A stretch of DNA of 64,000 nucleotides, taken from assembly GCA_040079635.1 (NCBI GenBank), contig JBEBJY010000003.1, positions 34,566 to 98,565 on the forward strand, in the 5' to 3' direction. Positions 7,391 to 61,012 of this stretch are shown one piece after another. Under the pieces are notes generated by a model that made no database searches, was not told the origin of the DNA, and was given only the letters and a program-made list of their open reading frames with translations. Every line of letters begins with the position of its first letter. The first letter of the stretch is position 1. A program made the position numbers and the translations under genes. The DNA is from Burkholderiaceae bacterium. Lineage in GTDB: Bacteria > Pseudomonadota > Gammaproteobacteria > Burkholderiales > Burkholderiaceae_C.

Positions 7391-8590
7391 ATGACATCTA
7401 GCTCAACTTCTCGTCGCCAAGTTTTATCTCGCAGCGCTGCATTGATTGGCGCCGCTTCCACGGGTTTACTTGTTACTGAGCAAGCCCAAGCGCAAACAGG
7501 CAAATTGCGCATCGGTTTAATGCTGCCTTACACCGGCACGTTTGCACAGCTGGGCGTGGCGATTGAAAATGGTTTCCGCCTGGCTATCAACGAGCAAGGC
7601 GGCAAATTGGGTGGCCGTGAGATTGAGTTTTTCAAAGTGGACGATGAGTCCGAGCCATCCAAAGGCATTGAAAACGCCAATAAACTGGTGCAGCGCGACA
7701 AAGTGGACGTGCTGGTTGGTACCGTGCACTCTGGCGTGCAAATGGGTATCCACAAAGTGGCGCGTGACAGCGGTGTGTTGAGCTTGATTCCTAATGCAGG
7801 CGTACATGCGGCAACGCGTTCGCAATGCGCACCCAACGTGTTTCGCACCTCGTTCAGCAATTCACAACCAACGCGAGCCCTAGGTCAGGCGATGATCGCC
7901 AAAGGGCATAAAAAAGCGGTATGGATCACCTGGAAATACGCTGCGGGTGACGAGGCTTTTGAGGGCTTTAAAGAAAGCTATACAGCAGCTGGCGGCACGA
8001 TTGTGAAAGAACTTGGTTTACCTTTCCCTAACGTTGAATTTCAAGCGCTGTTGACTGAAATTGCTGCATTGAAACCTGACGCTGTGGCATGCTTCTTCGC
8101 GGGCGGAGGTGCGGCTAAATTCATGAAAGATTACGCGGCAGCTGGCTTGCAGGGCAAGATCCCGCTCTACGGCTCAGGCTTTTTAACGGAAGGCGTGTTG
8201 GACGCTGCAGGGCCAGCAGCCAATGGCGTGATGACGACATTGCATTACAGCGATTCACTCGACACGCCACGCAACAAAGAGTTCCGCCTAAATTACGCTA
8301 AAACATTCAAGTTGCAGCCAGATGTTTACGCTGTTCAAGGGTATGACACAGGCTTGCTTCTGATTCAAGGCATGAACGCCGTCAAAGGCGATGTGACAAA
8401 AAAAGTGGAGCTGTACAAAGCGATGGAATCTGCCACCATCAACAGCCCACGCGGCAAGTGGACCATGAGCAAAGCGCACAACCCAGTGCAAGATATCTAC
8501 TTGCGCGTTGTAGAGAATAAGGAAAACAAAGTCTTGGGCGTTGCGGCTAAAGCGCTGTCAGACTCTGGCGCAGGCTGCAAGATTTCTTAA
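7391..8590 (+). CDS. ABC transporter substrate-binding protein (LivK / Peripla_BP_6 type) with a Tat-like signal
   Basis: 399 aa. The N-terminus has SRRQVLSRSAALIGAAS...AQAQ (twin-arginine signal). The overall pattern is that of a branched-chain amino acid / aromatic acid binding protein. Confidence 0.85.
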   Translation: MTSSSTSRRQVLSRSAALIGAASTGLLVTEQAQAQTGKLRIGLMLPYTGTFAQLGVAIENGFRLAINEQGGKLGGREIEFFKVDDESEPSKGIENANKLVQRDKVDVLVGTVHSGVQMGIHKVARDSGVLSLIPNAGVHAATRSQCAPNVFRTSFSNSQPTRALGQAMIAKGHKKAVWITWKYAAGDEAFEGFKESYTAAGGTIVKELGLPFPNVEFQALLTEIAALKPDAVACFFAGGGAAKFMKDYAAAGLQGKIPLYGSGFLTEGVLDAAGPAANGVMTTLHYSDSLDTPRNKEFRLNYAKTFKLQPDVYAVQGYDTGLLLIQGMNAVKGDVTKKVELYKAMESATINSPRGKWTMSKAHNPVQDIYLRVVENKENKVLGVAAKALSDSGAGCKIS

Positions 8591-10548: not shown

Positions 10549-11318
10549 CTGATTTACTCTTATCTGCCAAGAATCTGACTAAGCACTTTGGTGGTTTAGC
10601 TGCTGTGAACGATGTGTCGATTGATTTGTTCAAAGGCCAAATTCACGCCGTGATTGGCCCCAACGGTGCGGGAAAATCAACACTCACAAACTTGGTTTCA
10701 GGGGATTTGGCGTTGACGTCAGGCAGCATTCAACTGAATGGACACGACGTTACAGGCTGGCATGCCGAGAAAATATCACGACAAGGCTTGGGGCGAAGTT
10801 TTCAAAAAACCAATGTGTTTTTACCCCTCACTGTTTGGGAAAACGTGCGCTTAGCAGCACAGTCTCGCGACATACAGCAGCCTTGGAATCCGCTGATTTG
10901 GTTTCAAAGCACACAAAACGCTACGCAATCAATAGCAGCTCAGGCAATAACCGCAAAGGCTATAGAGCTTTGCAAGCTTGAAAATCGCATGCATGCTGTT
11001 GCTGGAACCATCAGCCATGGCGAGCAACGTCAGTTAGAGATTGCGATGACTTTAGCGACCCAACCACAAGTTTTGCTGCTGGATGAGCCCTTGGCGGGTA
11101 TGGGCGTGGCAGAAGCGGAACGCATGATTGAACTACTGCATACTTTGAAAAGAGACCATGCCATGCTGTTAGTTGAGCATGATATGGACGCCGTGTTTGC
11201 ACTAGCAGACAAGCTCACAGTGATGGTCAACGGGCAAGTGATTGCTAGCGACATTCCAAGCCGAGTGCGAGCAGACGTCAAAGTGCAAGCAGCTTATTTA
11301 GGTGAAGAACATGTCTGA
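10545..11318 (+). CDS. ABC transporter ATP-binding protein (LivG-like)
   Basis: Walker A GPNGAGKST, signature HGEQRQLEIA, Walker B LLLDEP. The start at MTDLLL (10545) overlaps the LivM-like stop (ATGA). Confidence 0.85.
   Translation: MTDLLLSAKNLTKHFGGLAAVNDVSIDLFKGQIHAVIGPNGAGKSTLTNLVSGDLALTSGSIQLNGHDVTGWHAEKISRQGLGRSFQKTNVFLPLTVWENVRLAAQSRDIQQPWNPLIWFQSTQNATQSIAAQAITAKAIELCKLENRMHAVAGTISHGEQRQLEIAMTLATQPQVLLLDEPLAGMGVAEAERMIELLHTLKRDHAMLLVEHDMDAVFALADKLTVMVNGQVIASDIPSRVRADVKVQAAYLGEEHV
10918..10968 (+). repeat. Dispersed 50-bp element-like segment in frame inside the LivG-like ATPase
   Basis: gctacgcaatcaatagcagctcaggcaataaccgcaaaggctatagagc. It shares a 17-mer, aatagcagctcaggcaa, with the gcvT copy. 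Translated as ATQSIAAQAITAKAIE. Confidence 0.65.
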
Positions 11319-12048
11319 TCTGCTCATAGACGCAAAAGGTCTGAACACCCATTATGGTGCTAGCCATATCCTGCAAGGCATTGATTTTTCAGTGGCACGT
11401 GGCGAAACGATCGGGCTGATGGGGCGCAACGGTATGGGCAAAAGCACACTGCTTAAAAGCATTATGGGTTTGGTCAAACCAAGTTCTGGGGTTGTCGCCG
11501 TTATGGGTCAAGATATGACAGGCGCGCCGCCTTACAAAATTGCACAACTTGGTGTGGCTTATGTCCCTGAAGGACGTGGTATTTTCGGCAATTTAAGTGT
11601 CACTGAGAACCTGAAAATGACAGCTCGTGCAGGGAAATCTGCAGCAGCCAAAATGCGCGCCCAAAAACAACAAGACTGGAACTATGAACGCGTATTGGAA
11701 ACTTTTCCGCGCTTAAAAGAGCGATTAAATCACGGCGGACAACAACTTTCTGGCGGTGAGCAACAAATGCTGACCATCGGCCGCGCTTTGATGACCAATC
11801 CAGACATACTAATTTTGGATGAAGCCACCGAAGGTTTAGCGCCTTTGATTGCGAAAGAGATATGGCGCATTTGCGGCGTGATTCGCGAATCTGGCATCAG
11901 TAGCATCATTGTGGATAAAAACTGGAAGCACGTGACGCAAATCACAGACCGCAATGTTATTTTGGTGAAAGGGCAAGTCGTTTTTGAAGGTAGCTCTGCA
12001 CAGCTACTCGCTCAGCCTGAGATTTTGCAACAACACCTTGGTGTTTAA
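11311..12048 (+). CDS. ABC transporter ATP-binding protein (LivF-like)
   Basis: Walker A GRNGMGKST, signature LSGGEQQML, Walker B LILDEATEGL. I chose the ATG at 11311; a GTG at 11302 is the alternative. Confidence 0.85.
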   Translation: MSDLLIDAKGLNTHYGASHILQGIDFSVARGETIGLMGRNGMGKSTLLKSIMGLVKPSSGVVAVMGQDMTGAPPYKIAQLGVAYVPEGRGIFGNLSVTENLKMTARAGKSAAAKMRAQKQQDWNYERVLETFPRLKERLNHGGQQLSGGEQQMLTIGRALMTNPDILILDEATEGLAPLIAKEIWRICGVIRESGISSIIVDKNWKHVTQITDRNVILVKGQVVFEGSSAQLLAQPEILQQHLGV

Positions 12049-12075
12049 ACTTTTGTAGCTCTATCAGGCCAAGAA

Positions 12076-12504
12076 TCAGGTATAGATTTTTTGCAATAGA
12101 CGCATCAGTGTTTTACGCTCGGTAGCCGTCAACTTCGAAGCCGCATCGTCTTCCAGATCTTTTGCTGTTTGTTCCGCTTCTTTCATCAACTTTATACCAA
12201 TTTCAGACAAATGCAGACCAATAACACGGCCATCGCTTGGGTGGGGTTTGCGCAATATCAGTTCACGCTTTTCCAAAGTATTGATCATGCCAACCAAGTT
12301 TGGCGGCAAAATATTTAACTCAGAACATAGCTGACGTGAACTGATACCAGGATTGTGCGTTATCAAGGATAAAACCGAAAAATCAACAGGCCGCAAGTCG
12401 TAAACAGCCATTCGCTTCAGAAAAAGACCAATAATTTCTACGGCGGCACGGCGTGCGTTGTAACCTAATAATGATTCTAGATAACTGGTGTCAATTTTTT
12501 CCAC
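12076..12504 (-). CDS. MarR-family transcriptional regulator
   Basis: 142 aa with a MarR wHTH pattern (FSVLSLITHNPGISSRQLCSELNILPPNLVGMINTLEKRELILR). Confidence 0.8.
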   Translation of the reverse strand: MEKIDTSYLESLLGYNARRAAVEIIGLFLKRMAVYDLRPVDFSVLSLITHNPGISSRQLCSELNILPPNLVGMINTLEKRELILRKPHPSDGRVIGLHLSEIGIKLMKEAEQTAKDLEDDAASKLTATERKTLMRLLQKIYT

Positions 12505-12530
12505 GCTGGTTTTATTCTTTCGGTTGACGT

Positions 12531-14294
12531 TTATTGACAGCTAAAATTTGCTGCTTCCTCAATACTACCATTGCCTTTATATTTTGCGACCGAGGGATAG
12601 GCACACAAAGGACGCGTACGTGTAGGCGACCACTCTTTTGGAAGTTCCGCATTCACGCCACCAGCATTGTCCACACCGCGAACTGACGCGACAATTGAGT
12701 CTGGTGCAACTCCCTGCTCTACCCATTTAACCAATGGCGTTAGTGCATCAAATTGATCTGCTGCTGGCCCAGCGCTGCAATGACTCATACCTGGAACAGA
12801 AAAGTGGCGCACGATGTTGCCACTGTTTGGCACGTTGCTAGCTACCCGGTCAACCCAAGCGCGGGTGTCTAATTCTGAAAACACGGCATCGCTCACACCA
12901 TGGTAAGTCAGCATCTTAGCGCCGCGTTTTTGCAGCGTACCCATGTAGCTTGGCTTGTCATAACCAACAGGACTCATGGTTTCATCTGAACTCGACGCAA
13001 AGCCGTTAGGTTTGCTGTAAATGGCTGCATGCAATTCATCATAATTCTTATCAAATGCTTTGACAGTTCGCACATCGCCCGCAAAGATAAAACTGAGAGC
13101 GCCAGGGTCCAAAGCTTGTGCATTTTGATATTTCCAAGCCGCCCAGTTGGCCGCGCTGATACCCGCATCAAAGGGAAAATTTGCATAAAAGGGTTTGCCA
13201 TCTGATGCTTTTCCACCGGCAAATACTTTAGCAACGGTGGTCTTCTGCAAATTGCTTAAACATTTGCCATCGCGTCCTGCGGTGCAAGTCGGAACGTCAC
13301 GAACAACATCAAATGCTTTTTGGCATGCAGCAACGTTTTGCACCAATCCGTCTTTTGCTCCATCCAGTGCATCGCACTTGTCCAAAATAGCATTCGCGAC
13401 AATTTGGCGGTCTTGGGCGTTAAAGCCAAGGCTGATATCTGGAAGTTTGACAGTAGGCGCAAAAGGATGAGTCAAACTAGATGATGCTAATGGTGTCTCA
13501 GGAGAGAGGTCTTTCCACTGTGCAGATCCCCACACCTGTGCCAGAGCTGCTTGAGGCAAACGATAGCCAGGCGCACCGACTAAATAGCCATCGTATTGAT
13601 CTGCATAACGAGATGCCGCGACCATGCTATGTCGCCCACCGTTCGAGCAACCACCAATATATGATCGATCCGGGGCTTTGCCGTAAGCCGCAACAATCAA
13701 ACCTTTCGCCATAGGTGTTAACTTACCAACCGCGCCATACCCGTAGTTTTGTCTTGCCTCAGGGTCCGCACCGAATGACGGATTTTGACTACCGTTATGG
13801 CCAGCATCGGAGCTGATAACTGCAAACCCTTGATGCAACGCACCCGTCAACGGTCCGCCACCTAATGCACCAAGTGCTGGTTGTACAACGCCATCTAAAC
13901 CGCCATTGACTTGGTGATAAAAGCGCCCGTTCCATTGCGTTGGCAAGCGCATTTCAAAACCAATGGCGTAATCTTTACCGTCAACACCTTTGCGCTCATC
14001 CATGACACCCTTGACCAAGCAATGTTCTGGGGCATCGTAGGCTGTTTTGGGTGCAGTAGGTGCGCCGCCCATGGCAACAGCACCAGCGGCGACTGGTACG
14101 CTGCTAGTGATGCGAAGTTTGTCGTATTTGAACTTTGCGATGATGTCAACGCAATTACCCGACATAGCTGCAGGCTTAGCAGCACTTAGAGGTAGTGATT
14201 GTGCGGCATCTTGCTGCCCACCTAAATGTGAGCACGCTGAAAAGAGCGCCACACTGGCAACTCCTACTGAAAAAGTTGCTAGCGTGGCTTTCAT
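12531..14294 (-). CDS. Tannase/feruloyl-esterase family serine hydrolase, predicted lipoprotein
   Basis: 587 aa. It has a lipobox (LFSAC), the nucleophile motif GGCSNGG, and a C-terminal PGMSHCS. Together these form the CS...HC arrangement characteristic of the tannase/FaeB/MHETase family. Confidence 0.75.
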   Translation of the reverse strand: MKATLATFSVGVASVALFSACSHLGGQQDAAQSLPLSAAKPAAMSGNCVDIIAKFKYDKLRITSSVPVAAGAVAMGGAPTAPKTAYDAPEHCLVKGVMDERKGVDGKDYAIGFEMRLPTQWNGRFYHQVNGGLDGVVQPALGALGGGPLTGALHQGFAVISSDAGHNGSQNPSFGADPEARQNYGYGAVGKLTPMAKGLIVAAYGKAPDRSYIGGCSNGGRHSMVAASRYADQYDGYLVGAPGYRLPQAALAQVWGSAQWKDLSPETPLASSSLTHPFAPTVKLPDISLGFNAQDRQIVANAILDKCDALDGAKDGLVQNVAACQKAFDVVRDVPTCTAGRDGKCLSNLQKTTVAKVFAGGKASDGKPFYANFPFDAGISAANWAAWKYQNAQALDPGALSFIFAGDVRTVKAFDKNYDELHAAIYSKPNGFASSSDETMSPVGYDKPSYMGTLQKRGAKMLTYHGVSDAVFSELDTRAWVDRVASNVPNSGNIVRHFSVPGMSHCSAGPAADQFDALTPLVKWVEQGVAPDSIVASVRGVDNAGGVNAELPKEWSPTRTRPLCAYPSVAKYKGNGSIEEAANFSCQ

Positions 14295-14368
14295 TTACTT
14301 GTCTCCAAACTTAAAATTTTATTTATTCAATTTCTTTTACTAAATAGCCACTAGGTGCCTATTTGTGA

Positions 14369-15364
14369 TTACGCGTCAACTGTAAAACCAATACGCTTGA
14401 TCAGCGGACCCCAGCGCTCTAACTCCACTTGCGAGCTCTTTAACTGCTCAGCTGGTGTGCCACCATAAGGAATCAAACCCACTACTTGGAATGAGTCCTG
14501 TACCGATTTGTCTTTCAACGCTGCGTTGATAGCTGCATTTGCAGCTGCCACGACGTTAGCTGGTGTTTTAGCTGGTGCGTAGAAACCGAACCATTCTTCC
14601 ACTGTCAACTCTGGGAAACCTTGCTCAGCAAATGTTGCCACCTCTGGTACAAATGGTGAACGTGTCTTGCCTGAAGTTGCCAAAATACGCATCTTGCCAG
14701 CTTTGTGATTTGCCAAGAAGTCACCATGCGGTGTAACCATGGCCGCAATTTGACCACCCACAACGTCTGTCACACCTGGCACAGAGCCACGGTATGGCAC
14801 ATGCTTCAAATCGACATTGTTATTCAAGCCCAACAACGCGCCAATGAAGTGCGGAGTTGAACCGGCCGCAGGTGAGCCATAGCTGGCTTGTGCTGGATTA
14901 GCCTTCGCCCATGCCAAAAACTCTTTCACTGTTTTGACAGTTGCAGGAACCATTGGTCCCACAGCCAAACCATGGTGAATCATGGAGCTGGTTCCCACAG
15001 GAGTGAAATCTTCAAACGGCTTGTATTGCAAGTTTTTAAAGATGTGTGGGTACAGCGAAATGGCAGAAAACGGTGTCATTGCCAAGACTGAACCATCCGC
15101 AGGTGCACTCTTCAACAAATTCAAAGCGATTTGCCCACCAGCTCCTGGTTTACTGTCAATCACACCAGCATTTTTTGTGTAGCCAGAGCCTGCAAATTTT
15201 TCTGCCACGCGACGTGCGCAAATGTCACCTGCGCTACCTGGTGGAAAGCCATAGAGCACTTTGACTTGCTCTATCGGCATAGCAGATTGCGCAAAGGCTG
15301 ATGGGTTTAAAGCAGCCGTGATGGCCGCGACCATACTGGCTTGGGTAAAAATTCTACGATCCAT
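14369..15364 (-). CDS. Bug/TctC-family (tripartite tricarboxylate transporter) periplasmic binding protein
   Basis: 331 aa with a signal peptide and typical Bug motifs (PGGSAGD-like PPGSAGD, VPYRGS). Confidence 0.85.
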   Translation of the reverse strand: MDRRIFTQASMVAAITAALNPSAFAQSAMPIEQVKVLYGFPPGSAGDICARRVAEKFAGSGYTKNAGVIDSKPGAGGQIALNLLKSAPADGSVLAMTPFSAISLYPHIFKNLQYKPFEDFTPVGTSSMIHHGLAVGPMVPATVKTVKEFLAWAKANPAQASYGSPAAGSTPHFIGALLGLNNNVDLKHVPYRGSVPGVTDVVGGQIAAMVTPHGDFLANHKAGKMRILATSGKTRSPFVPEVATFAEQGFPELTVEEWFGFYAPAKTPANVVAAANAAINAALKDKSVQDSFQVVGLIPYGGTPAEQLKSSQVELERWGPLIKRIGFTVDA

Positions 15365-15417: not shown

Positions 15418-17313
15418 TCAGGGTTTGAGAATATTTAACGCTGTATCTGCATAAAGCGATGACACCAATTCTGCTCGCTCCTTCAAAACCGCTCGCTGGT
15501 TGATACTGCCTTTGTCGGTAATCTCACCCTTGTCAATATTTGGCGGCTCAGTCAAGACAACTGCTCGCGCTACTCGACTAGCAGAACCAGTAGCTGACTT
15601 TGCCAATTCTGTGATCATGGCAGCCATGGCAGATTGCATTTTTTCGTGTTGAGCAATATCGCGCATCGTTGCACTATCAGGCAAACCAAATGCTTTTCTA
15701 CACGGTATGAGTGCAGGAATAATCAATGCGCCCACCTCTTTTTCATTCAAACCGGTGATCACGACATCTTGAATATAGGGCGCACCTGCGGCTGTGATTT
15801 TGGCGCGCATGGGGCCTACGCTGACAAAAGTTCCAGTGGAAAGCTTGAAGTCTTCCGCAATACGCCCATCAAACTTCAAACCTTTGTGATGGTCTGCTTC
15901 GTCAATCCATTTCACGGCATCACCTGTGCAGAAAAAACCTTCTTCATCAAAGCACTCGTTTGTGGCTTCTGAGTTTCGCCAATAGCCAGGCGTGATGTTC
16001 GGCCCCTTGTAGCGTACCTCCACCTTATCGCCGCAAGGTACAAGTTTCAATGTCAAACCCGAACATGGCAAACCTAAATCACCAGACTTCACGTTTGGAT
16101 TGGTGACAAAAAGTCCAAATGGAGAGCTTTCCGTCATACCCAAACCAGTCGTCATGACGATACGATGACCGATTTCTTTTTCAGCACTTTCAAACAGACT
16201 ATCCCAGATGGGCTGCGCCAGCGATGCCCCCGCGTAAAAAAACATTCTGCAACGTGACAGCAATGATTTACGCAACTGCCTACCATCTTCGTCATCCACT
16301 TTCATGGCTGCAGCGACGTATTCAAAACCTGTTGGTACGTTCAAATACATGGTAGGTGAAATTTCACGCAGATTCTTCAAAGTCTCGCCAATCAACGCGG
16401 GCACAGGCTTGCCATCGTCAATGTACATCGTGCCGCCGTGGTGCAAAATCAAATTAAAGTCATGGTTACCACCAAAAGTATGATTCCACGGCGTCCAATC
16501 AACCAACACCAAAGGGTCTTCAGCCATGGCAGGAATGGATTGGCTGATTTGCTGCACATTGGCGCAAATCATTTTTTGTGTATTGATAACGCCTTTTGGC
16601 AATTTGGTTGAGCCACTGGTGAACAAAAACTTAACCACAGTATCATGCCCAGTAGCAGCAACAGCCTGCGCCACTTGTGGTGTAATTTCAGTTGACAAGA
16701 GGTCGTTAAAATTAATGCACTTTTTGACTGTAGCCTGCGTATTTATTGCCTGATTAGCTATATTATTTGCAGCAAAAACCATGTCTGATTTTCCTACAAA
16801 AGCTATGGCTTTGGCGTATTTTTCTGCATCACTGGCATACACAAAACCAGGTGTGATGGTGTCAAAAATATGTTTGAGCTTTTCAAAATCTTGGCTGAGC
16901 AAACTATACGCAGTAGATACGCTGCAATAAGGCACGCCCACAGTTATAGCCGCGATTGCAATAAGTGCATGCTCCAAGCTGTTTTCGCTCAAAATTGCAA
17001 CGGGTCGATCAACACTTAAACCCATATCGAGCAAAGATTGACCGATACGCTGAGCTTTGTCCCAAGCTTGTGCGTAACTGATATGCACCCATTCACGCGT
17101 CACAGGGTCACGTCTAGCCATCCACGTGCGGTCTGGTCGGTGCTTTGCCCAGTGAATGAGTCGATCTGTCAATCGCGTTTCATACGGTTCTAAATCATTT
17201 TCAGCGCGAAGGTAGGTGTTATCACCAACTTTAGAAACAACAGCACGCGTCACGCCATACTTAAAGTCGCGGTAGATGGGTTGTTTAGGTTGTGATGAAG
17301 ATGTTGTCGTCAT
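15418..17313 (-). CDS. AMP-dependent acyl-CoA synthetase, feruloyl-CoA synthetase (Fcs)-like
   Basis: 631 aa with the AMP-binding motif TSGSTKLPKG. The long N-terminus (YRDF..LRAENDLEPYETRLTDRLIHWA) resembles Fcs-type hydroxycinnamate-CoA ligases. Confidence 0.6.
   Translation of the reverse strand: MTTTSSSQPKQPIYRDFKYGVTRAVVSKVGDNTYLRAENDLEPYETRLTDRLIHWAKHRPDRTWMARRDPVTREWVHISYAQAWDKAQRIGQSLLDMGLSVDRPVAILSENSLEHALIAIAAITVGVPYCSVSTAYSLLSQDFEKLKHIFDTITPGFVYASDAEKYAKAIAFVGKSDMVFAANNIANQAINTQATVKKCINFNDLLSTEITPQVAQAVAATGHDTVVKFLFTSGSTKLPKGVINTQKMICANVQQISQSIPAMAEDPLVLVDWTPWNHTFGGNHDFNLILHHGGTMYIDDGKPVPALIGETLKNLREISPTMYLNVPTGFEYVAAAMKVDDEDGRQLRKSLLSRCRMFFYAGASLAQPIWDSLFESAEKEIGHRIVMTTGLGMTESSPFGLFVTNPNVKSGDLGLPCSGLTLKLVPCGDKVEVRYKGPNITPGYWRNSEATNECFDEEGFFCTGDAVKWIDEADHHKGLKFDGRIAEDFKLSTGTFVSVGPMRAKITAAGAPYIQDVVITGLNEKEVGALIIPALIPCRKAFGLPDSATMRDIAQHEKMQSAMAAMITELAKSATGSASRVARAVVLTEPPNIDKGEITDKGSINQRAVLKERAELVSSLYADTALNILKP
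16726..16773 (-). repeat. Dispersed 50-bp element in frame inside the CoA-ligase gene
   Basis: gactgtagcctgcgtatttattgcctgattagctatattatttgcagc, translated as AANNIANQAINTQATV. Confidence 0.85.
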
Positions 17314-22691: not shown

Positions 22692-23534
22692 ATGCCAAAA
22701 TTCGCCGCCAATTTGACGATGATGTACCCCGAACTGCCGTTTTTAGACCGCTTCGAAGCAGCGGCCAAAGACGGTTTTAAGGCGGTGGAGTACCTCTTCC
22801 CCTACGCTTTTGAGGCCAAAGAGCTGGCTGCTAGGTTAAAAAACAATGGTTTGCAGCAAGTTTTGTTCAACTTACCGCCGGGCGGCGTGGATGCTAAATC
22901 CATAGACGACACGTGGAACAACGGCACACGCGGCATTGCTTGCATCGCGGGGCGTGAAGCTGAATTGGCGGCAGGCGCAGACCTAGCCTTGCGTTACGCC
23001 GAAGTCTTGGACTGCCCCAGATTGCACATGATGGCGGGTTTATTACCTACAAATGCCTTATCCACCGCAGAAAACAAGGCAAATACTCGCCAAACCTACG
23101 TCAACAATGCCAAAACTGCCAGCCAGTTGGTAGCAAAACAAGGCATCAACCTGCTCCTAGAACCCATCAACACCCGCGATATTCCAGGTTTTTTTCTGAA
23201 CCGCCAAGACGAAGCGCATGCTTTGATTACTGAAATCGGTCAGTCAAATGTCAAAGTGCAAATGGATTTGTACCACTGCCAAATCGTCGAAGGCGATGTA
23301 GCGATGAAAATCCGCCAATACCTGCCCACTGGCAATGTCGGCCATTTCCAAATCGCAGGCGTGCCAGAGCGGCATGAGCCTGATATTGGCGAGATGAATT
23401 ACCCGTATTTGTTCGATGTGATCGACAGTTTGGGATACGACGGCTGGATTGGCTGTGAATACAAGCCAAAACTGGGTGGACAGCCGAATGGCACATCCAG
23501 CGGGCTGGGTTGGTTAAAACCATATCTAGGCTAA
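22692..23534 (+). CDS. otnI: Hydroxypyruvate-isomerase family; 2-oxo-tetronate isomerase (OtnI)-like
   Basis: 280 aa TIM-barrel Hyi pattern (FAANLTMMY..., LLLEPIN, GHFQIAG, GCEYKP). Confidence 0.65.
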
Positions 23535-23535
23535 T

Positions 23536-23586
23536 ATTACTATTCTTTTTATAGCTATTCAGGCAATAAATACGCCGGCTAGAGCC
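23536..23586 (+). repeat. Dispersed 50-bp element, intergenic between convergent otnI-like and gcvP
   Basis: attactattctttttatagctattcaggcaataaatacgccggctagagcc. Confidence 0.9.
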
Positions 23587-23597
23587 ATTTTTACACC

Positions 23598-26504
23598 CTA
23601 TTCAGCGTATTCACTCACCGGAACGCAGCTGCAAAACAGATTTCGGTCGCCATAGACGTTGTCCACCCGTCCAACGGGTGCCCAGTATTTGTTTTGCTTC
23701 AGTTTGGCCAACGGATAAGCACCTGTTTCACGGCTGTAAGGACGGCTCCAATCCTCACCCAACAAGCTATCCGCCGTGTGCGGTGCATGCTTCAGCGGGT
23801 TGTTGTCTTGCGGCCAAACGCCCTGCTCTACTTTAGCGATTTCAGCGCGGATGGCAATCATGGCGTTGATGAAGCGGTCTAACTCGTAAAGCGTTTCACT
23901 TTCGGTCGGTTCGACCATCAGCGTGCCTGCGACCGGAAAGCTCAGCGTTGGTGCGTGGAAACCGTAGTCGATCAGCCGCTTGGCGACGTCTTCGGCGGAA
24001 ATGCCGTTCGCACCACCTGTGCTGTCTTTCAGCGGACGCAAGTCCAAAATGCACTCATGCGCGACATAGCCCTGCTCGCTAGCATAGAGCGTGGGGAAAT
24101 GGTCTTTCAGGCGGGTGCTGATGTAGTTGGCGCTCAAAATGGCGATTTCTGTCGCGTCTTTCAAACCCTCAGCGCCCATCATGCGGCAGTACATCCAGCT
24201 GATAGGAAGTACCGCAGCATTTCCTAGGGGCGCTGCTGATATTGCCCCTACGCCGTTGACTTTTAACCCACCGGTCACATGCCCCGGCAAATACGGCACC
24301 AAATCCGCCACGACGCAAACGGGGCCGACACCCGGGCCGCCACCGCCGTGCGGGATACAGAATGTCTTATGTAAGTTCAAGTGGCTCACATCGCCGCCAA
24401 ATTCGCCCGGTGCGGCCGTGCCCACCAGCGCATTCATATTCGCACCGTCCACATAAACGCGGCCACCGAAGCTGTGAACCATGGCGCAGAGCTCTTTGAC
24501 GCTGGTCTCAAACACGCCGTGGGTACTCGGGTAGGTGATCATCACGCATGCCAGATTGGCGGCGTTCTGCTCGCATTTGGCCTTCAAATCCGCCATGTCG
24601 ACATTACCTTTGGCGTCGCAAGCCGTGACGACCACCGTCATGCCCGCCATCTGCGCGCTGGCAGGATTCGTGCCGTGGGCGCTGGATGGAATCAGGCAGA
24701 TGTTGCGATGACCTTGGCCATTCGCTTCAAAAAACGCCTTGATAACCAGCAAACCGGCGTATTCACCTTGTGAGCCGGCATTGGGTTGCAGGCTGATACC
24801 CGCATAGCCCGTGGCTTGGCACAACCAAGCGCGCAACTGCTCGTCCAGCTCGGCGTAGCCTTGCAACTGGTCGTGCGGCGCAAACGGGTGGATATTGGCA
24901 AACTCGGGCCAGGTGATGGGGATCATCTCGCTGGTGGCGTTGAGCTTCATGGTGCAACTGCCCAGCGGAATCATGCTGCGATCCAGCGCCAAGTCCTTGT
25001 CCGAGAGCATGCGAATGTAGCGCAGCATCGCGGTCTCAGAATGGTGAGTATTAAAAACAGGATGCGTTAAAAACGAGCTGCTGCGGCGCAATTCAACGGG
25101 GATCAACGACGTCACGCTCGATTCAAAATCAGCAACTTGCGGCAGCGTTTGCCCAGGTTTAGCAAAGAACGACCAAACCAATGCAACATCGTCGCGCGTC
25201 GTGGTTTCGTCAAGTGAAATACTGACGTAGTTTTCCCATGAAATTTTGACGTTAGCCAACGCATTAATTGCCTTAGCAGCTATCGATTGTGTAGCATCAT
25301 CAGTCTTGATGGTGATGGTATCAAACGCCGACGCACTCGTCGGCTTGAAACCCAAAGTCTGCAAACCGCGCGCCAAAATGGCCGTGTAAGCTGCAACGCG
25401 CTGCGCAATCCGCGTTAAACCCTGCGGGCCGTGGTAGACCGCGTACATGCTGGCGATCACCGCTGGCAGCACCTGCGCGGTGCAGATATTGGAGGTGGCT
25501 TTTTCGCGGCGGATATGCTGCTCGCGGGTTTGCAGAGCGAGACGGTAAGCTGGATTGCTATGCACATCAACACTGACGCCGACCAAACGACCCGGCATGG
25601 AGCGCTTGAACTCGTCGCGGCAAGCCAAGTACGCCGCGTGTGGGCCACCGTTTCCCATAGGCATGCCAAAACGCTGGGTCGTACCCAGCACGATGTCTGC
25701 GCCCCACTCGCCCGGTGATTTTAACAAAGTCAGTGCTAGTAAATCTGCAGCAACAATGAAAGCTGCCTGCTTGGCATGCACGGCAACGACATCAGCACGC
25801 AAGTCATCAATACGCCCGCTGGTAGATGGATATTGCGCCAATACGGCGAAATAATCGCCCTTCAACGCCGCTTCCCACTCAGGGGCTGAATTCGCCAGCT
25901 GCACGGTAATGCCCAGCGGTTTGGCACGGGTCTGGATCACTTCAATCGTCTGCGGATGGCAATCCCCAGCGACGACAAAGACATGGCTTTTGGATTTGAC
26001 GCTGCGCTTGGCCAGCGTCATCGCCTCGGCCGCTGCGGTGGCTTCGTCGAGCATGGAGGCATTCGCCATCGGCAAACCCGTCAAATCGCAGACCATGGTT
26101 TGAAAGTTCACCAGCGCTTCCATGCGCCCCTGGCTGATTTCGGCTTGGTACGGCGTGTAAGCGGTGTACCAAGCTGGGTTTTCCAAAATATTACGCAAAA
26201 TCACGCCCGGCGTGTGCGTGCCGTAATAGCCTTGACCAATAAAGCTTTTGAACACCTTGTTTTTGCCCGCCATGGCTTTGAGCTCTGCCAAAGCCTGCGC
26301 TTCCGTCGCCGGATGCGGTAAATCCATCAACTGCTTGCGTGCAATGCTGCGTGGCACGATGGCCTCAATCAAGGCCGCACGCGTAGCCGCGCCCACGACT
26401 TTAAGCATATGAACCTCATCCGCAGCACCAATACCGATGTGGCGAGCGAGGAACTCGGAGGTGTTTTCTAACTCAACTAACGTGGGGGCAGACTTCTGAG
26501 GCAT
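23598..26504 (-). CDS. gcvP: Glycine dehydrogenase (decarboxylating), P-protein
   Basis: 968 aa single-chain GcvP with conserved blocks throughout (e.g. [37 protein letters not shown]). Confidence 0.95.
25248..25295 (-). repeat. Dispersed 50-bp element-like segment in frame inside gcvP
   Basis: gacgttagccaacgcattaattgccttagcagctatcgattgtgtagc. It shares a 17-mer, attgccttagcagctat, with the chrA copy. Translated as [16 protein letters not shown]. Confidence 0.65.
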
Positions 26505-26537
26505 GGCAAACTTAGGTGTTTTAGAAATTAAAAGAAT

Positions 26538-26903
26538 TTAGGCGGAGAAGCTGGTGTAAGCCGTTTCATCCATCAACGCAGCAATTTGCGACGTGTCTGA
26601 CAACTTGACCTTGAAGAACCAGCCAGCGCCCAATGGGTCAGAATTTGCCAACGCTGGGTCAGCGCGCAATTCCTCGTTCACCTCGGTAATCTCGCCGCTC
26701 ACTGGCATGTAAACATCAGCCGCCGCTTTGACAGACTCGACCACGCCAGCCACTTCTTTTTGGGCAAACAAAGCACCCACTTCGGGCAAATCCACAAACA
26801 CCACATCGCCCAAGGCATCCTGCGCGTGATGTGTAATTCCTACGACAGCGATATCGCCGTCAATTTTTAGCCATTCGTGGTCTTCGGTGTATTTCAATGT
26901 CAT
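26538..26903 (-). CDS. gcvH: Glycine cleavage system H protein
   Basis: 121 aa with the lipoyl-lysine motif ESVKAA and an HEWLK N-terminus. Confidence 0.95.
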
Positions 26904-26969
26904 GTTGTTTCTCCTAAAAAGTTGTTTAAATTAATTGGGGTCAGATTCTAATTATTCTGCTTTGAAAAA

Positions 26970-28133
26970 TTAGCCACGGAAATAGCGGTTTGGCACAAAA
27001 GGCATAGCCGCAACTTCCATAGCCACGACTTTACCGCGAACCAGTGCATTGATTCGGTTGCCGACCGCAGCAAATTCTGCGTTGACGTAGCCCATGGCAA
27101 TCGGTTTATCTATGGTCGGTGCCAGCAAGCCGCTGGTGACTTCGCCAATGCGCTTGCCGCTAGTGTCCTGCAATTCAGTGTGCTCCCGCACGGGGACACG
27201 GTCTAAAGCGATCATACCGACCCGTTTTTTAGTGCCATTTATGGCTGTAGCCGGCGTATTATTTGCCTGAGCTGCTATTATATTTATAGCTCCAATGTAA
27301 CCACCAGCCCGCTCACCGTCCGCACGACGCACCTTTTGCATGGCCCAACCCAGCCCGGCTTCTACAGGATTTGTCGTCGCATCAATATCTTGGCCGTACA
27401 AACACAGCCCGGCCTCCAAACGCAGAGAATTGCGAGCCCCCAGGCCAATCGGTTTGACTTCCGGCTCAGTCAGCAGCGCTTTGGCCAGCATTTCAGTTTG
27501 TTCGGCAGAGACCGAGATTTCAAAACCATCTTCGCCGGTGTAGCCACTGCGGGTGACAAAACAGTCAGCCCCAGCGATGGTGAAACGTCCACCGGTCATA
27601 AACACCAGCTTTTCAATACCTGAGTTAGCGGGCGCCAATCTGGCCATCACCGCCACCGCCTGCGGCCCCTGCAAAGCCAGCAAACCGTGCGTCGGCAAAG
27701 GTGTGATCTCGCAGCGGTTGCCGATGTGTTGCTGAATATGGGCGATATCACCCGCTTTGCAAGCGCCGTTGACGATGACAAAAATCTCGTCATCTGCCAC
27801 CTTGAAAAACATCAAATCGTCAACGATGCCGCCCGCCTCGTTGGTCAGCAGGCCGTAGCGCTGTTTGCCTACGGACAGATCAATCACATCGACTGGCATC
27901 AGGGTTTCAAACGCGGCAGCAGCGTCTTTGCCCTTTAGACGCAATTGCCCCATGTGAGAGACATCAAACAAACCGGCGCGGTTACGAGTATGGTGGTGCT
28001 CCGCGACCAAACCGCTTGGGAATTGAACCGGCATCGAATAACCCGCAAACGGCACCATGCGCGCGCCAAGTGCGACGTGCAAGTCGTACAACGGAGTTTT
28101 AAGAAGCTCGGTAGCGGTGGTTTCAGTAGACAA
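26970..28133 (-). CDS. gcvT: Glycine cleavage system aminomethyltransferase T
   Basis: 387 aa with TPLYDLH...GARMVPFAGYSMPVQF and DVSHMGQ motifs. Confidence 0.95.
   Translation of the reverse strand: MSTETTATELLKTPLYDLHVALGARMVPFAGYSMPVQFPSGLVAEHHHTRNRAGLFDVSHMGQLRLKGKDAAAAFETLMPVDVIDLSVGKQRYGLLTNEAGGIVDDLMFFKVADDEIFVIVNGACKAGDIAHIQQHIGNRCEITPLPTHGLLALQGPQAVAVMARLAPANSGIEKLVFMTGGRFTIAGADCFVTRSGYTGEDGFEISVSAEQTEMLAKALLTEPEVKPIGLGARNSLRLEAGLCLYGQDIDATTNPVEAGLGWAMQKVRRADGERAGGYIGAINIIAAQANNTPATAINGTKKRVGMIALDRVPVREHTELQDTSGKRIGEVTSGLLAPTIDKPIAMGYVNAEFAAVGNRINALVRGKVVAMEVAAMPFVPNRYFRG
27243..27290 (-). repeat. Dispersed 50-bp element in frame inside gcvT
   Basis: ggctgtagccggcgtattatttgcctgagctgctattatatttatagc, translated as INIIAAQANNTPATA. 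Confidence 0.85.
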
Positions 28134-28174
28134 AAGAGACTCCTAGGGCATGAAAATCGGTCGATCAATGCCCC

Positions 28175-28408
28175 GGCTGTCCTCTTTACCTGAGAGATTC
28201 GCAAGCTAAATGGGTAGCTTGGTTGCTCCTTCGGTGGATGGTTTCAAGGAACCATCTCTCTCCAGCAAGGAACGCTCAAAATCAAGTTTTGAACGTCGTG
28301 TCAGTCCTTTTTGCCTGAGCGTTCAGAGATTGCAATGTATGAATCTCTTGCGCCTTCGGCGGTTTTTGTGACAAATTTCTGTGATTTATCAAAAAACGCT
28401 CTCCTGAC
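28175..28408 (-). promoter_or_regulatory. Tandem glycine riboswitch in the gcvT leader
   Basis: On the minus strand there are two aptamers. Aptamer 1 reads GGAGAGCG...CCGCCGAAGGCGCAAG...CTCAGGCAAAAAGGACTGAC. Aptamer 2 reads CTGGAGAGAGATGG...CCACCGAAGGAGCAACC...CTCTCAGGTAAAGAGGACAGCC. They sit immediately upstream of gcvT. Confidence 0.8.
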
Positions 28409-28476
28409 AACGCGAATTGTACCTAATTCAAAACTTCAAGCCTATTTACATCTGCCCAAAGCCCGATAATCAACGC

Positions 28477-29308: not shown

Positions 29309-29653
29309 ATGAAGAAAATCACTACACTTTTAATAGCAGTATCGGCAATATTTACGCTGGCTAGCTGCACACAAGAGCAACAAAACAAGATCAGCCGCGA
29401 CATCCAAAACTGGACAGGTACCAACGGCGTTCTCGAAGTTTATGCGGGAGACAAAGTCGTTCGTCGTTTCCTGAAAATCGACAAAATCAGCACCGCCATG
29501 GGCACAGACGACGGCAAAGCCCGCGCCTACCGCTTTGGCTACGGTGTGTTGGATGAAAACCTGAACATGATTGCCGATGCGGGCGAGAAAAAAGTGTATT
29601 TTGAAATCAGCGACTACGCGACGAATTACATCTTTTTTGAGAATCCACGGTAA
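29309..29653 (+). CDS. Small lipoprotein of unknown function
   Basis: MKKITTLLIAVSAIFTLASC is a signal peptide plus lipobox. The longer ORF-track start (29201) would overlap rlmB. Confidence 0.6.
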   Translation: MKKITTLLIAVSAIFTLASCTQEQQNKISRDIQNWTGTNGVLEVYAGDKVVRRFLKIDKISTAMGTDDGKARAYRFGYGVLDENLNMIADAGEKKVYFEISDYATNYIFFENPR

Positions 29654-36166: not shown

Positions 36167-36795
36167 GCTGCATCTCCCTTATTGGCTTGCTCAATCGCAC
36201 CAATTTGTCGATAAGCCCACAGCGTCGCCACCGCTCCCAAACCAAGCAACACCCAAACCAGCGGTATTCTGAATATCGCAATTGCTACAAATGTTATAGC
36301 TGCTAAGGCAATACATACGCTGGCTGACATCACATTTGCCTTCAGTGCAGAGACCAGTCGCAGCCCTACCGCCGCAATCAAGCCCGCAGACACAGCACCC
36401 ATACCTTTGAGCGCGCCCTGCGCCATCGGCAAATCAGCCACGCTGGCAAACAGGGCGGCAATGACCAAAACCACCAGCAGCGGAAAAGCCAAAATCCCCG
36501 CCAATGCCGCCAAGCCGCCGCGCAGCCCAAAATAACGATCACCAATCATCAGCGCCAGATTCACCACGTTGGGACCGGGCAAAATCTGCGCAACCGCCCA
36601 GTCTTCGATGAATTCTTCGTTGGTCAACCAGCGTTTTTCATCGACCAACACCCGCTGTACCACCGCCAAAACCCCACCAAAACCCTGCAAAGCGAGCCAA
36701 GTCATGGACCAGAACAGGTCAGCGCAGGAAGCTGGTTGGGGACGAATGACGGGTTGAGGGGTGATTGGGGAAGAAGTTTCAGAGACGTCAGGCAT
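36163..36795 (-). CDS. chrA: Chromate transporter (CHR family) half-size subunit
   Basis: 210 aa with FGGVLAV...E.RW.. and AQILPGPN motifs. Confidence 0.8.
   Translation of the reverse strand: MPDVSETSSPITPQPVIRPQPASCADLFWSMTWLALQGFGGVLAVVQRVLVDEKRWLTNEEFIEDWAVAQILPGPNVVNLALMIGDRYFGLRGGLAALAGILAFPLLVVLVIAALFASVADLPMAQGALKGMGAVSAGLIAAVGLRLVSALKANVMSASVCIALAAITFVAIAIFRIPLVWVLLGLGAVATLWAYRQIGAIEQANKGDAA
36282..36331 (+). repeat. Dispersed 50-bp element in frame inside chrA, in a transmembrane-like segment
   Basis: ttgctacaaatgttatagctgctaaggcaatacatacgctggctgacatc. About 27 of 31 core positions are identical to the consensus. Read on the minus strand as MSASVCIALAAITFVAIA. Confidence 0.7.
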
Positions 36796-39580: not shown

Positions 39581-39632
39581 ACTACAATCATAAAGCATAG
39601 CACCTTAGGCAATAAATACGCCGGCTACAGCC
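39581..39632 (+). repeat. Dispersed 50-bp element, intergenic; left bracket of the DUF167-higBA module
   Basis: actacaatcataaagcatagcaccttaggcaataaatacgccggctacagcc. Confidence 0.9.
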
Positions 39633-39659
39633 AAATTTACCCTCTAAATAGAGCACCCT

Positions 39660-40324: not shown

Positions 40325-40753
40325 ATGCAAGCAACTCAAACCCAATTCAACATTCAAAACTTGCAAGCTTCTTGGCAAGCTTTTGATGCCATGGCGCACC
40401 TTCGCCCTATTCACTCTGAGGCCGATTTTGAACGCATGTCTTCAATGATGAACGCGCTGTTGGACGATGTGGGTGACGACGAAGAGCACCCTTTGTCTGG
40501 CCTGCTCGAATTGGTCAGTGATTTGATCCATCGCTACGAGCAAACGCATCACGCCATTGAAGCCGCCGCGCCCAAAGACGTACTGCGCTTCTTGATGGAA
40601 TCGCGCGGGCTCAAGCAAGATGATTTGTCCACCCTTGTGCCACAAAGCAACCTATCAGCTATTTTGGCGGGTAAACGCAAAATCAGCGCTGCGCTGGCGG
40701 GTAAGCTGGGTAAATACTTCGGAATCAGCGCAGCGGTGTTTGTACCTGCTTAA
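40325..40753 (+). CDS. higA: HigA-family antitoxin (C-terminal XRE-type HTH)
   Basis: 142 aa from MQATQ. The C-terminal LMESRGLKQDDLSTLVPQSNLSAILAGKRKIS is an HTH. It follows the toxin directly. Confidence 0.75.
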   Translation: MQATQTQFNIQNLQASWQAFDAMAHLRPIHSEADFERMSSMMNALLDDVGDDEEHPLSGLLELVSDLIHRYEQTHHAIEAAAPKDVLRFLMESRGLKQDDLSTLVPQSNLSAILAGKRKISAALAGKLGKYFGISAAVFVPA

Positions 40754-40757
40754 ATAT

Positions 40758-40808
40758 GCATCTAGTCGGCGTATTTATTGCCTAAGGTGCTATTAAATTT
40801 ATAGTATA
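40758..40808 (-). repeat. Dispersed 50-bp element, intergenic; right bracket of the DUF167-higBA module
   Basis: gcatctagtcggcgtatttattgcctaaggtgctattaaatttatagtatatt. It shares a 27-mer, atagcaccttaggcaataaatacgccg, with the copy at 39581. Confidence 0.9.
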
Positions 40809-40819
40809 TTTCAATTCAA

Positions 40820-45918: not shown

Positions 45919-45922
45919 AAGT

Positions 45923-59621: not shown

Positions 59622-60923
59622 TTAAGATAAGAGTTCAGCAAATGACACAAACTGAACCATATCACCAATGGCAATGGTCTGCCCGGGCGGGTTATTGACC
59701 AAGCCATCTCCCCACACGGCAGAAGTTAGTACGCCAGAGCTTTGATTTGGGAACAAGTCCAAACTACCGTTAGCATTGCGTTTAACACGCAAAAATTCAC
59801 GACGTTTATCGGCTCTAGCCCACGTAAAATTTGCCTGAACAGCTATTGATTTAGTAGTGATTTGATCAACTTCTTGAACGCCCTGCAATTTCAACAAAAA
59901 CGGACGAACCAAGAGTAAAAACGTCACAAAACTGGAGACTGGGTTGCCTGGCAAACCTATGAAATGACAGGAGGCGTCCATGTTTTTGACCTTGCCATAT
60001 GCAAACGGCTTGCCCGGTTTGATGGCGATTTGCCACAAATTCAGCTCGCCCAGCGCCTGCACAGCGGGTTTGATGTGGTCTTCTTCACCGACAGAGACGC
60101 CACCGCTGGTCAAAATCAGGTCATGCCCTTCGGCGGCGCTGCTCAATGCGGCTTTGGTTGCATCCAAATTGTCGGGCACGATGCCCATATCGGTCACCAC
60201 GCAACCCAAGCGCTGCAGCAAAGCGCGTAAAAAGAAACGGTTGGAGTTGTAAATGCTACCTGAGGGCATGTCTTGCGGAGCAATGTCGCCCGGCATGACT
60301 AGTTCGTCACCCGTAGAAAACAGCGCGACTTTAGGACGACGTACCACTGGCACGCTAGCCAAACCAATACTAGCCGCTAGCCCAAGCGATGCAGGCGTGA
60401 GACGCTCTCCCTTTTGCAGCACAACTGCACCCAAAGCTACGTCTTCACCAGCACGGCGAATCCATTGGCCCGAGGTGGGAACGACATTGACGCGAATTTG
60501 GCTCAGACCGCTGTTGCCGGTATTTGTATCGGGCAGGATTTCGCACTCCTCCTGCATCACCACCGCATCAGCTCCGGCTGGAATTGACGCACCCGTAAAG
60601 ATACGAGCAGCCGTACCAGCTTGCAAAGCCGTACCGACACTGCCAGCGGGGATGCGCTGGCTGACGCTGAGCACCGTTCCCGCTAAACCCGAGATATTTG
60701 CGACATCTTCACAACGCAAGGCGTAACCGTCCATAGCACTGTTGTCTTGGGGTGGCACATGCAAGCTGGAGTGCATGTCTTGCGCCAAAACGCGGCCATC
60801 GGCGTCGAAAGTGGAGACTTCATCAACGCCGTCTATCGTTGAAACCTGCGCAAGCAGCTCCACCAAGGCAACATCAAGAGCTTTCAGCGGGGCGCGTACA
60901 GGATTCATGGCAGGTTTCGTCAA
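59622..60923 (-). CDS. moeA: Molybdopterin molybdenumtransferase MoeA
   Basis: 433 aa with PPQDNSAMDGYALR, STGDEL and SGGVSVGEEDH motifs. Confidence 0.9.
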   Translation of the reverse strand: MTKPAMNPVRAPLKALDVALVELLAQVSTIDGVDEVSTFDADGRVLAQDMHSSLHVPPQDNSAMDGYALRCEDVANISGLAGTVLSVSQRIPAGSVGTALQAGTAARIFTGASIPAGADAVVMQEECEILPDTNTGNSGLSQIRVNVVPTSGQWIRRAGEDVALGAVVLQKGERLTPASLGLAASIGLASVPVVRRPKVALFSTGDELVMPGDIAPQDMPSGSIYNSNRFFLRALLQRLGCVVTDMGIVPDNLDATKAALSSAAEGHDLILTSGGVSVGEEDHIKPAVQALGELNLWQIAIKPGKPFAYGKVKNMDASCHFIGLPGNPVSSFVTFLLLVRPFLLKLQGVQEVDQITTKSIAVQANFTWARADKRREFLRVKRNANGSLDLFPNQSSGVLTSAVWGDGLVNNPPGQTIAIGDMVQFVSFAELLS

Positions 60924-60927
60924 TTCA

Positions 60928-60979
60928 ATTTACTATGATTTTTATAGCTACTTAGGCAATTAATACGCCGGCTAGAGGC
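60928..60979 (+). repeat. Dispersed 50-bp element, intergenic between thrC and moeA
   Basis: atttactatgatttttatagctacttaggcaattaatacgccggctagaggc. Confidence 0.9.
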
Positions 60980-61012
60980 ATAAATGACCACATTTTTGAA
61001 TCAATATGGCTT

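Follow-up and report, generated by a model that had tools for sequence, protein, structure and literature searches.

In-frame copies of a dispersed repeat family in gcvT and gcvP of a Burkholderiaceae bacterium: a DNA motif probably written into native codons

DNA uptake sequences (DUS) and uptake signal sequences (USS) have a core of 9–12 nt and occur about once per kb. The DUS dialects of Neisseriaceae and the USS of Pasteurellaceae have reportedly been treated by Frye et al. in 2013, Findlay and Redfield in 2009 and Maughan et al. in 2010. The present work concerns a family of ~55-nt AT-rich repeats dispersed over a 64-kb stretch of contig JBEBJY010000003.1 from a Burkholderiaceae bacterium (the window; ~50% GC), with copies in frame in gcvT and gcvP of the glycine-cleavage operon. 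The family is comparable to DUS and USS in that its copies would arise in place at compatible peptides, occupy orthologous sites and follow lineage dialects. They also lie in either orientation, often at the ends of genes, and show nucleotide-level conservation. By analogy, the five-part pattern of in-place writing, orthologous sites, dialects, silent-site conservation and distribution over orientations and gene ends may be regarded as a DUS-like signature. The window element differs in having a 21-nt core within ~55 nt and a density of about 1 per 4–6 kb.

Repetitive extragenic palindromes (REP) are extragenic, form stable hairpins and often lie in inverted pairs. REP and REPIN sequences with their RAYT transposases were reportedly studied by Nunvar et al. 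in 2010 and by Bertels and Rainey in 2011. The window family shares with them a short length, abundance, genome specificity and a location mostly just after genes, and may share, on the reverse strand, a GTAG or CTAG beside a small palindrome. It differs by having 9 of its 16 window copies in open reading frames (ORFs), by its weak fold and by its occurrence as single copies. The Rickettsia palindromic elements (RPE), which are said to go back to Ogata et al. in 2000, are reportedly insertions of 100–150 bp that add 30–50 residues. In both cases a dispersed repeat lies in frame within housekeeping genes and leaves the reading frames open, but the window copies measure ~55 nt, replace existing residues, add no length of their own and are older than the genus. 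The beta-proteobacterial repeat elements (BRE; PMC3110155), ~90 bp long with 69% GC and often in tandem, are found in Bordetella, Polaromonas, Rhodoferax, Acidovorax and Delftia. As in the window family, some of their copies lie entirely within coding sequences, and the host genera overlap. BRE, compared by description and not by sequence, was rejected as the identity of the window family on length and GC content.

The only published trace found of the layout described below is a statistical survey (PMC5217627, BMC Genomics 2017) that lists ATAGCT(N)22CAAAAG in Polaromonas naphthalenivorans CJ2, with 125 copies of which 18 are in genes. The anchor ATAGCT and the N22 spacing are the same as in the window, where ATAGCT-N22-CTAGAG or CTACAG is found. 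Each motif is present in many copies, most of which are close to gene ends or separate convergent genes, and a smaller number are located in genes. The two differ in the internal core and in the 3' hexamer, as lineage dialects would. The survey gives counts and positions only; the in-frame behaviour, the length neutrality, the orthology and the codon evidence reported here lie outside its scope.

The consensus of the window copies is TACTAT/GCTAY-N7-ATAGCT-nnTY-AGGCAATAAATACGCCGGCTA-SAGCCAT. Sequence comparison resolves the family layout into a GCTAY-N7-ATAGCT palindrome, a lineage-variable core of ~20 nt and a terminal GGCTA(C/G)AG. The 21-mer core AGGCAATAAATACGCCGGCTA occurs 11 times in the window at ≤3 mismatches (0 expected), and the spaced motif ATAGCT-N22-CNANAG has 5 exact matches there (0.09 expected). 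An nhmmer profile identified 16 copies, of which 10 are strong (50–59 bits), another 3 are significant and 3 are marginal. They are single, in both orientations and mostly near gene ends. The family is very abundant, because metagenome depth over its copies is far above the single-copy level: in four freshwater metagenomes the contig depth is 100–250x single-copy depth at the intergenic copy that follows gcvP and ~10x at the one in gcvT. For the source sample, the intergenic copy gives a ratio of ~55. The window itself probably comes from a metagenome-assembled genome of drinking-water origin, since 98% of its sampled words are present in a single drinking-water metagenome run. Logan contigs of the source metagenome end at or near copies (window 23557–23575, 25260–25289 and 27522–27531), the assemblies being fragmented by the family.

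The gcv segments are true members of this family, which is Comamonadaceae-wide. A second profile, built from 9 copies outside the gcv genes and searched against 2.2 Mb, recovers the gcvT copy at 27236–27290 (-) with 50.5 bits (E 3e-13) and the gcvP copy at 25247–25296 (-) with 24.2 bits (E 4.9e-5). The 5' palindrome and the fixed distance of 22–23 nt to the 3' CTA(C/G)AG are found in both: the gcvT copy reads GCTAT-N7-ATAGC ... CTACAG with exact spacing, and the gcvP copy reads GCTAC-N7-ATAGCT-N22-CTAACG, with one mismatch in the 3' hexamer. The third copy of the operon, downstream of gcvP, matches the profile at 23538–23593 (+) with 56 bits, has 0 mismatches in the 21-mer core and fills a 63-nt gap. 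An earlier reading of this DNA made from the letters alone (the sequence-only reading) had proposed an in-frame copy in each of gcvT and gcvP, a third copy just downstream of gcvP and a glycine-cleavage operon with a riboswitch, all of which is borne out, the operon being gcvT-gcvH-gcvP behind a tandem glycine riboswitch (Table 1). It had also placed both coding copies in the same element frame. Both do read GCT AYN NNN NNN ATA GCN, but little can be concluded from this agreement, since stops (TAG) interrupt the other sense frames.

Table 1. Positions in the window of the repeat copies and of the genes and RNA elements of the gcv operon
Feature	Position	Strand	Basis
gcvT repeat copy, encodes A282-N299 (AINIIAAQANNTPATAIN)	27234..27293	-	leave-out profile; core 26/28 = consensus
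gcvP repeat copy, diverged, encodes A404-K420, native helix of N-terminal GDC-P domain	25247..25299	-	profile
gcvT, aminomethyltransferase, 387 aa	26970..28133	-	PF01571, PF08669; PDB homologues E 5e-80
gcvH, 121 aa, without repeat copy	26538..26903	-	ORF; orthologous 121-aa gene in L161 and L165 has PF01597
gcvP, glycine dehydrogenase, 968 aa	23598..26504	-	PF02347, PF21478
Tandem glycine riboswitch aptamers, upstream of gcvT	28167..28416		Rfam RF00504 twice, 60 and 48.9 bits; strand -
Intergenic copy between stop codons of gcvP and convergent AP-endonuclease-2-family gene	23533..23593	+	profile, 21-mer
AMP-binding CoA-ligase gene copy, in frame, residues ~179-198	16720..16777	-	49.5 bits
moeA copy, weaker, in frame, between MoCF_biosynth and MoeA_C	59808..59862	-	19.6 bits; Pfam
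chrA copy, antisense to gene	36280..36325	+	30.7 bits
Intergenic copy, representative of intergenic set	60926..60988	+	50-56 bits
Further intergenic copy	4804-4864	+	50-56 bits
Further intergenic copy	39589-39640	+	50-56 bits
Further intergenic copy	40751-40810	-	50-56 bits
Further intergenic copy	43495-43556	+	50-56 bits
Further intergenic copy	45863-45924	-	50-56 bits
Further intergenic copy	63823-63878	-	50-56 bits

The copy in gcvP has 4 mismatches in the 21-mer, and its core agrees with the consensus at 21 of 28 positions versus 10–14 for the orthologues from other genera. The encoded GcvP segment has equal length in ~100 relatives including Pseudomonas, with examples such as ATNSIAARAIAAGANL and ATNSIAARAIAAGANLR in L013, ATKSIAARAVSMGANV in L005 and NTAALHDKAHAAQINLR in Pseudomonas (L-numbers denote the loci of relatives used for comparison). 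Within the genus the segment is stable and aligns without indels. In L166 (47% GC; gcvP at 11616–14528), a locus with a strong gcvT copy and intergenic copies, the motif is absent from gcvP and the segment is an unrelated peptide, ADQLMALAREHGVNLR, that is one codon shorter.

The codons of the GcvP segment differ between relatives with and without the motif. Motif-free relatives (L037, L047, L100, L110) encode the peptide ATxAIAxRA with GC-normal codons (GCC ... ATC GCC), the full string in L037 being GCC ACC GAG GCC ATC GCC GCC CGC GCC. Ten loci of Rhodoferax/Polaromonas type, with 57–68% GC, use GCT ACN NNN NNN ATA in 10 of 10 cases, followed by GCT G in nine. This string is the family 5' motif GCTAC-N7-ATAGCTG, and in the same loci ATA accounts for 2–14% of Ile codons and GCT for 5–21% of Ala codons. 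Since the length is equal, the codons are rare and the peptide is native, the motif appears to have been written into the native helix by synonymous and conservative changes. Codon comparison indicates that it is held across genera whose other silent sites are saturated. Note that in the long ORFs of L001, a Polaromonas metagenome-assembled genome (MAG) with 64% GC, ATA supplies 14% of Ile codons, an unusually large share at such a GC content; this may reflect many ATAGC copies inside genes.

In relatives, a different, GC-rich palindromic repeat (…GTTCGGGTTGAGCTTGTCGAAACCCTTCGACAAGCTCAGGGCGAACGG…) has inserted in frame into gcvP, at PGH(A/V)T^GG. The gain is 19 residues (YDAVNSSVRVELVETLRQAQGERDFK) in L163, whose gcvP has it at 13991–14071. 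The repeat is also present in the gcvP of L169 (11389–14391, 1000 aa). Other copies were seen between gcvH and gcvP and in L001, L089, L090 and L122. True insertions into gcvP are thus recognisable and look different from the window copy, as the gain of 19 residues in L163 shows. This GC-rich repeat of L163 and L169 may be BRE, to judge from the published description (PMC3110155).

The gcvT copy lies between PF01571 (residues 15–264) and PF08669 (302–380), in the linker that joins the folate-binding domain to the C-terminal barrel. The AlphaFold2 model of GcvT (65 sequences, mean pLDDT 75) predicts a helix at 282–291, a loop at 291–300 with pLDDT <50 and a strand from 302. The sequence-only reading had judged the GcvT segment to be several residues longer than usual. 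The linker does exceed that of solved structures by ~6 residues and that of most Comamonadaceae by 4–5, but it equals in length those of three Rhodoferax MAGs (L002, L003 and L005; L002 has GATKILAAIAGTTGAGSTNGTRKRVG). It is moreover among the shortest linkers of its own genus, where GcvT measures 384–405 aa. The outgroup helix GA(D/T)K(V/I)LAQL and the 5' half of the segment are collinear. At the same codons Polaromonas L001 has GCG GAC AAG GTG CTG GCG versus GCT ACA AAA ATA CTA GCG in the Rhodoferax type, and the window has GCT ATA AAT ATA ATA GCA. The nucleotide identity of the segment to L002, L003 and L005 is 0.67–0.74 and the gene-wide identity is 0.69–0.71; because the two are equal, the segment is considered orthologous by descent.

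A further informative locus is L170, a Polaromonas-like contig of 60% GC whose GcvT is 74% identical and which has a window-type intergenic copy (35 bits). Its gcvT carries a window-type core (GGCAATCAACACGCCGGCTACCGCC) in a linker 1 residue longer than the Acidovorax type (GATKILDQLAINTPATARKRVG vs GADKVLAQLDNPASLTRKRVG). Because the core sits there in a linker of near-normal length, the extra residues of the window (…INGT), which lie 3' of the core, were added separately. Nearly all of ~95 close GcvT proteins carry NIIAAQAINTPA, the literal translation of the repeat consensus, followed by a tail of 0 to 14 extra residues that is very variable within the genus. In L161 (gcvT at 6384–7550) the gcvP copy is present and the gcvT linker is an unrelated, element-free allele, GADVVTMQLNSQGGLERHLEHTPLIRKRVG, that replaces ~170 nt. 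The same type of allele is found in proteins P0041, P0078, P0083, P0085 and P0088. In a GcvT tree computed with the linker masked, which may itself be blurred by recombination, the element-free allele appears at several places inside the element-bearing clade. This scatter implies that linker alleles have been exchanged by recombination. The GcvT linker would thus act like a cassette that recombines, its natural alleles either carrying the element or lacking it.

The sequence-only reading had taken the two coding copies for insertions and had named the alignment of relatives as the check. That alignment contradicts it: in relatives that lack the window-type element, the segments at the two sites are equally long and similar in sequence (L013, L005 and Pseudomonas for GcvP; L002, L003 and L005 for GcvT). 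Its idea that the sites are tolerant retains some value for GcvT, whose copy lies between Pfam domains, over a helix and a loop of low pLDDT, and ahead of a variable tail, though not as a site of insertion. As far as the compared loci tell, the copies are old and did not arise by insertion here, and a hotspot cannot be demonstrated for the operon. Its 4.9 kb hold three copies where ~1.2 are expected from the density of the window (Poisson P ~0.12), which leaves the proposed hotspot without statistical support.

Conservation over the gcvT copy extends to silent sites. When 8 operons from the genus are compared, pairs that share a residue use the same codon at a frequency of 0.833 over the copy versus 0.594 gene-wide, a level that only 1.3% of stretches of equal size reach. 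A 9-codon profile that excludes L161 gives a sharply bounded peak, with 0.43–0.65 in the flanks and 0.82–0.85 over the copy, followed by a drop.

Versions of the family peculiar to the relatives, alike in layout and spacing, were found in Polaromonas L001 and Rhodoferax L002 and L005, and the gcv segments of relatives contain the 5' motif. The window-type nhmmer profile has zero matches in the loci of 80 relatives (1.4 Mb in total), and blastn-short with the relatives' gcvT segments on their own loci returned homologous positions only; the family versions appeared with the spaced-motif scan. The L001 version, GCTATCGATTCAATAGCTGCTTGCGCCCG…GGGCTAGAGGCC, has at least 5 copies in 21 kb, and a model made from the intergenic copies of that locus gives its gcvP segment (at 12859) 19.2 bits. 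L002 has a family of four similar segments, the gcvT segment being the reference copy. Over 28 core positions the window consensus is matched at 26 by the gcvT copy and at 21 by the gcvP copy, and at 10–18 by orthologues from other genera. The gcvT and gcvP cores are identical to each other at 17–21 of 28 positions in the window genus and at 15–21 in the L005/L013 group (21 within L005), versus 10–16 between the two groups. Since identity within groups exceeds that between groups, the gcvT and gcvP copies appear to change together with the family of their genome.

The orthology of the copies is seen also in the surroundings of the operon. The closest GcvT in species-representative genomes and metagenome contigs has 72% identity (Rhodoferax, Polaromonas and other Comamonadaceae), and a protein search returned the ~95 relatives at 80–93% identity and 384–405 aa. 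Seven syntenic loci of the genus (L161, L163 and L165–L169) carry the family at matching places in chrA, gcvT and gcvP. The copy downstream of gcvP is at the matching place in L161 and L165, where it is virtually identical with one base changed in L165, despite the GcvP of L165 being only 91% identical to that of the window. A search for an empty site downstream of gcvP found a shortened remnant in L163, with no clean empty site and no target duplication. In L167 a 247-aa DUF2971 gene (11189–11932) between gcvT and gcvH splits the operon.

Other in-frame copies of the window are also length-neutral. Alignment to 6oz1 shows zero added residues at the CoA-ligase copy, which has an orthologous copy at the same position in L167, and alignment to 1fc5 shows zero added residues at the moeA copy relative to E. 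coli MoeA. The chrA copy has orthologues in L161, L163, L165, L167 and L169, and one further copy lies antisense within a monooxygenase gene. The intergenic copies at 39589 and 40751 are very similar and inverted, and flank ~1.1 kb. A marginal match of 15–16 bits at window 29316–29364 falls where a small ORF encodes its lipoprotein signal peptide (TTLLIAVSAIFTLASC), and it recurs in L161 and L165. A repeat of a different type, a perfect 28-nt inverted repeat (CGTCATTCCCGCGAAGGCGGGAATCCAC and its complement) in which each arm is a small hairpin, is present at window 2104–2169.

The RNA fold of the copies is weak. Their minimum free energies of -7 to -15 kcal/mol are no better than those of shuffled sequences (z -0.2 to -1.9). 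A 5-bp stem with a 7-nt loop recurs among the copies. The reverse strand has GTAG or CTAG before a GGC...GCC mini-stem that likewise folds no better than shuffles. In the Polaromonas version of the family the GC hairpin is stronger (-18 to -21 kcal/mol). A structure of two hairpins conserved between dialects was rejected, the second stem shifting its register between the window and Polaromonas. A sigma-70 promoter was also rejected on the lack of convincing -35/-10 spacing and the position of copies between convergent genes. No intrinsic terminator (GC-rich stem plus U run) was found at the three copies of the gcv region, which has 8 such sites versus 6.7 expected. A search of Rfam at gathering threshold returned the two glycine aptamers only, leaving the repeat without a match. 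The suggestion that a hairpin in the element might cause premature termination inside the operon thus finds no backing in these folds or at either coding copy, and no effect on transcription of gcvTHP is expected. A single metatranscriptome run (share 0.06) yielded only fragments of relatives that are 5–10% different, the operon itself being found in metagenome DNA runs.

The gcv copies are probably best understood as a Comamonadaceae DNA motif that was written into codons compatible with it and is kept in place by either selection or molecular drive. The starting point would be native GcvP and GcvT helices with already compatible codons. The motif would be written in place through synonymous and conservative substitutions that favour rare codons (GCT, ATA, CTA), at no cost in length in GcvP and at a cost of about one codon in GcvT. 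The copies have been inherited, from genus to genus, at unchanged positions, following the version of the core used by each lineage. The maintaining force would act on nucleotides and not on the protein; it could be selection for a sequence-specific DNA recognition site or a molecular drive such as that of uptake sequences or biased conversion. The family would in the former case be a recognised DNA signal. We advance more tentatively, and with less than even confidence, the specific view that the ~55-nt sequence is an actively maintained, genome-wide recognition sequence with lineage dialects, written into gcvT, gcvP and moeA by recoding helices, and that its role is that of an unusually long uptake-type signal or of a site for a chromosome-organising or repair protein.

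Several observations weigh against maintenance of the motif. The copies are dispensable, as L161 lacks the one in gcvT and L166 the one in gcvP, and element-free alleles are scattered. The long-form linkers of the genus, with 6–14 extra residues after the core, show real changes of length at the site. The synonymous excess within the genus is not significant for the gcvP copy (0.69 vs 0.61; 16% of windows are as high). The L001 gcvP core agrees with its own consensus at 12 of 22 positions, no better than the cores of other genomes do, and the evidence for cores changing together comes from two or three independent lineages. To our knowledge, the near-invariant 21-nt core is far longer than any known uptake signal, and the recognising factor is a putative one.

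A family without function could give a similar picture if biased ectopic gene conversion from several hundred genome copies overwrote repeat-like segments, such as Ala/Ile-rich helices, wherever this is tolerated. Changes that add no length, cores that differ by lineage, the very high copy number (depth of 55–250x single-copy at the intergenic copy) and linker alleles whose conflict with the gene tree denotes recombination at the site would all be accounted for. We nevertheless regard this as unlikely: the shared stretches are short (17 nt on the 5' side and ~10 nt on the 3' side), and ancestral codons match about half of the motif positions, which by general knowledge is too few for RecA-type exchange. 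Conversion would also be expected to erase the private variant AAATAAT for AATAAAT, which persists uncorrected in the window, L165 and L168, and it sits poorly with a gcvP 5' motif kept across genera with saturated silent sites. It is extremely improbable that gcvP resembles the repeat by chance or through its peptide and that the gcvT copy alone is real. The native peptide ATxxIAxRA by itself does fix about half of the 5' motif and the score of 24 bits is modest, but orthologous gcvP segments from other genera score nothing in the search that gave the window copy its E-value, the rare codons are conserved in ten lineages, and the window-type core (AAGGCAAT..AAT) is present in the gcvP of the genus and of L170 and absent from those of L005 and L013.

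Insertion in frame of a mobile element of RPE type into tolerant surface loops of GcvT and GcvP, with the operon as a hotspot, is very unlikely and for gcvP largely refuted by the zero change in length. It would agree with the near-perfect match of the gcvT copy to the consensus, with the longer GcvT linker and its tail of varying length within the genus, and with the demonstrated ability of gcvP to accept another repeat in L163 and L169. However, 55 nt would add 18 residues, and the GcvT excess amounts to 4–6, lies 3' of the core and is absent from the core-bearing L170. The gcvT segment, which is orthologous to Rhodoferax linkers with an identity equal to that of the whole gene, and the unremarkable density of copies in the operon also speak against it. 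We give a similarly low probability to a role at the level of RNA or translation, through a small mRNA structure, a processing site or a pause at rare codons (ATA, CTA, GCT) at domain boundaries. About 12 of the 16 copies are sense to the local transcript, those in gcvT and moeA lie between domains, the rare codons are conserved and the small stem-loop recurs. Yet the folds are no better than shuffled ones, the repeat matches no Rfam family, and copies antisense to genes (chrA, the monooxygenase gene) or between convergent genes cannot act as a translational pause.

If the gcv copies are indeed a DNA motif written into native codons, they would represent overlapping information, a DNA signal within essential coding sequence that outlasts genera at the cost of rare codons. 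The same nucleotides would then serve both a protein sequence and a non-coding signal, the two co-evolving across genera. The gcvT linker would provide a concrete test site, since some of its natural alleles carry the element and others, in similar backgrounds, lack it. For annotation, such segments should not be treated as insertions or pseudogenising events, and repeat-based breaks are to be expected in metagenome assemblies. The Comamonadaceae would be a second system, after that of uptake sequences, for the adaptation of motif and proteome to each other.

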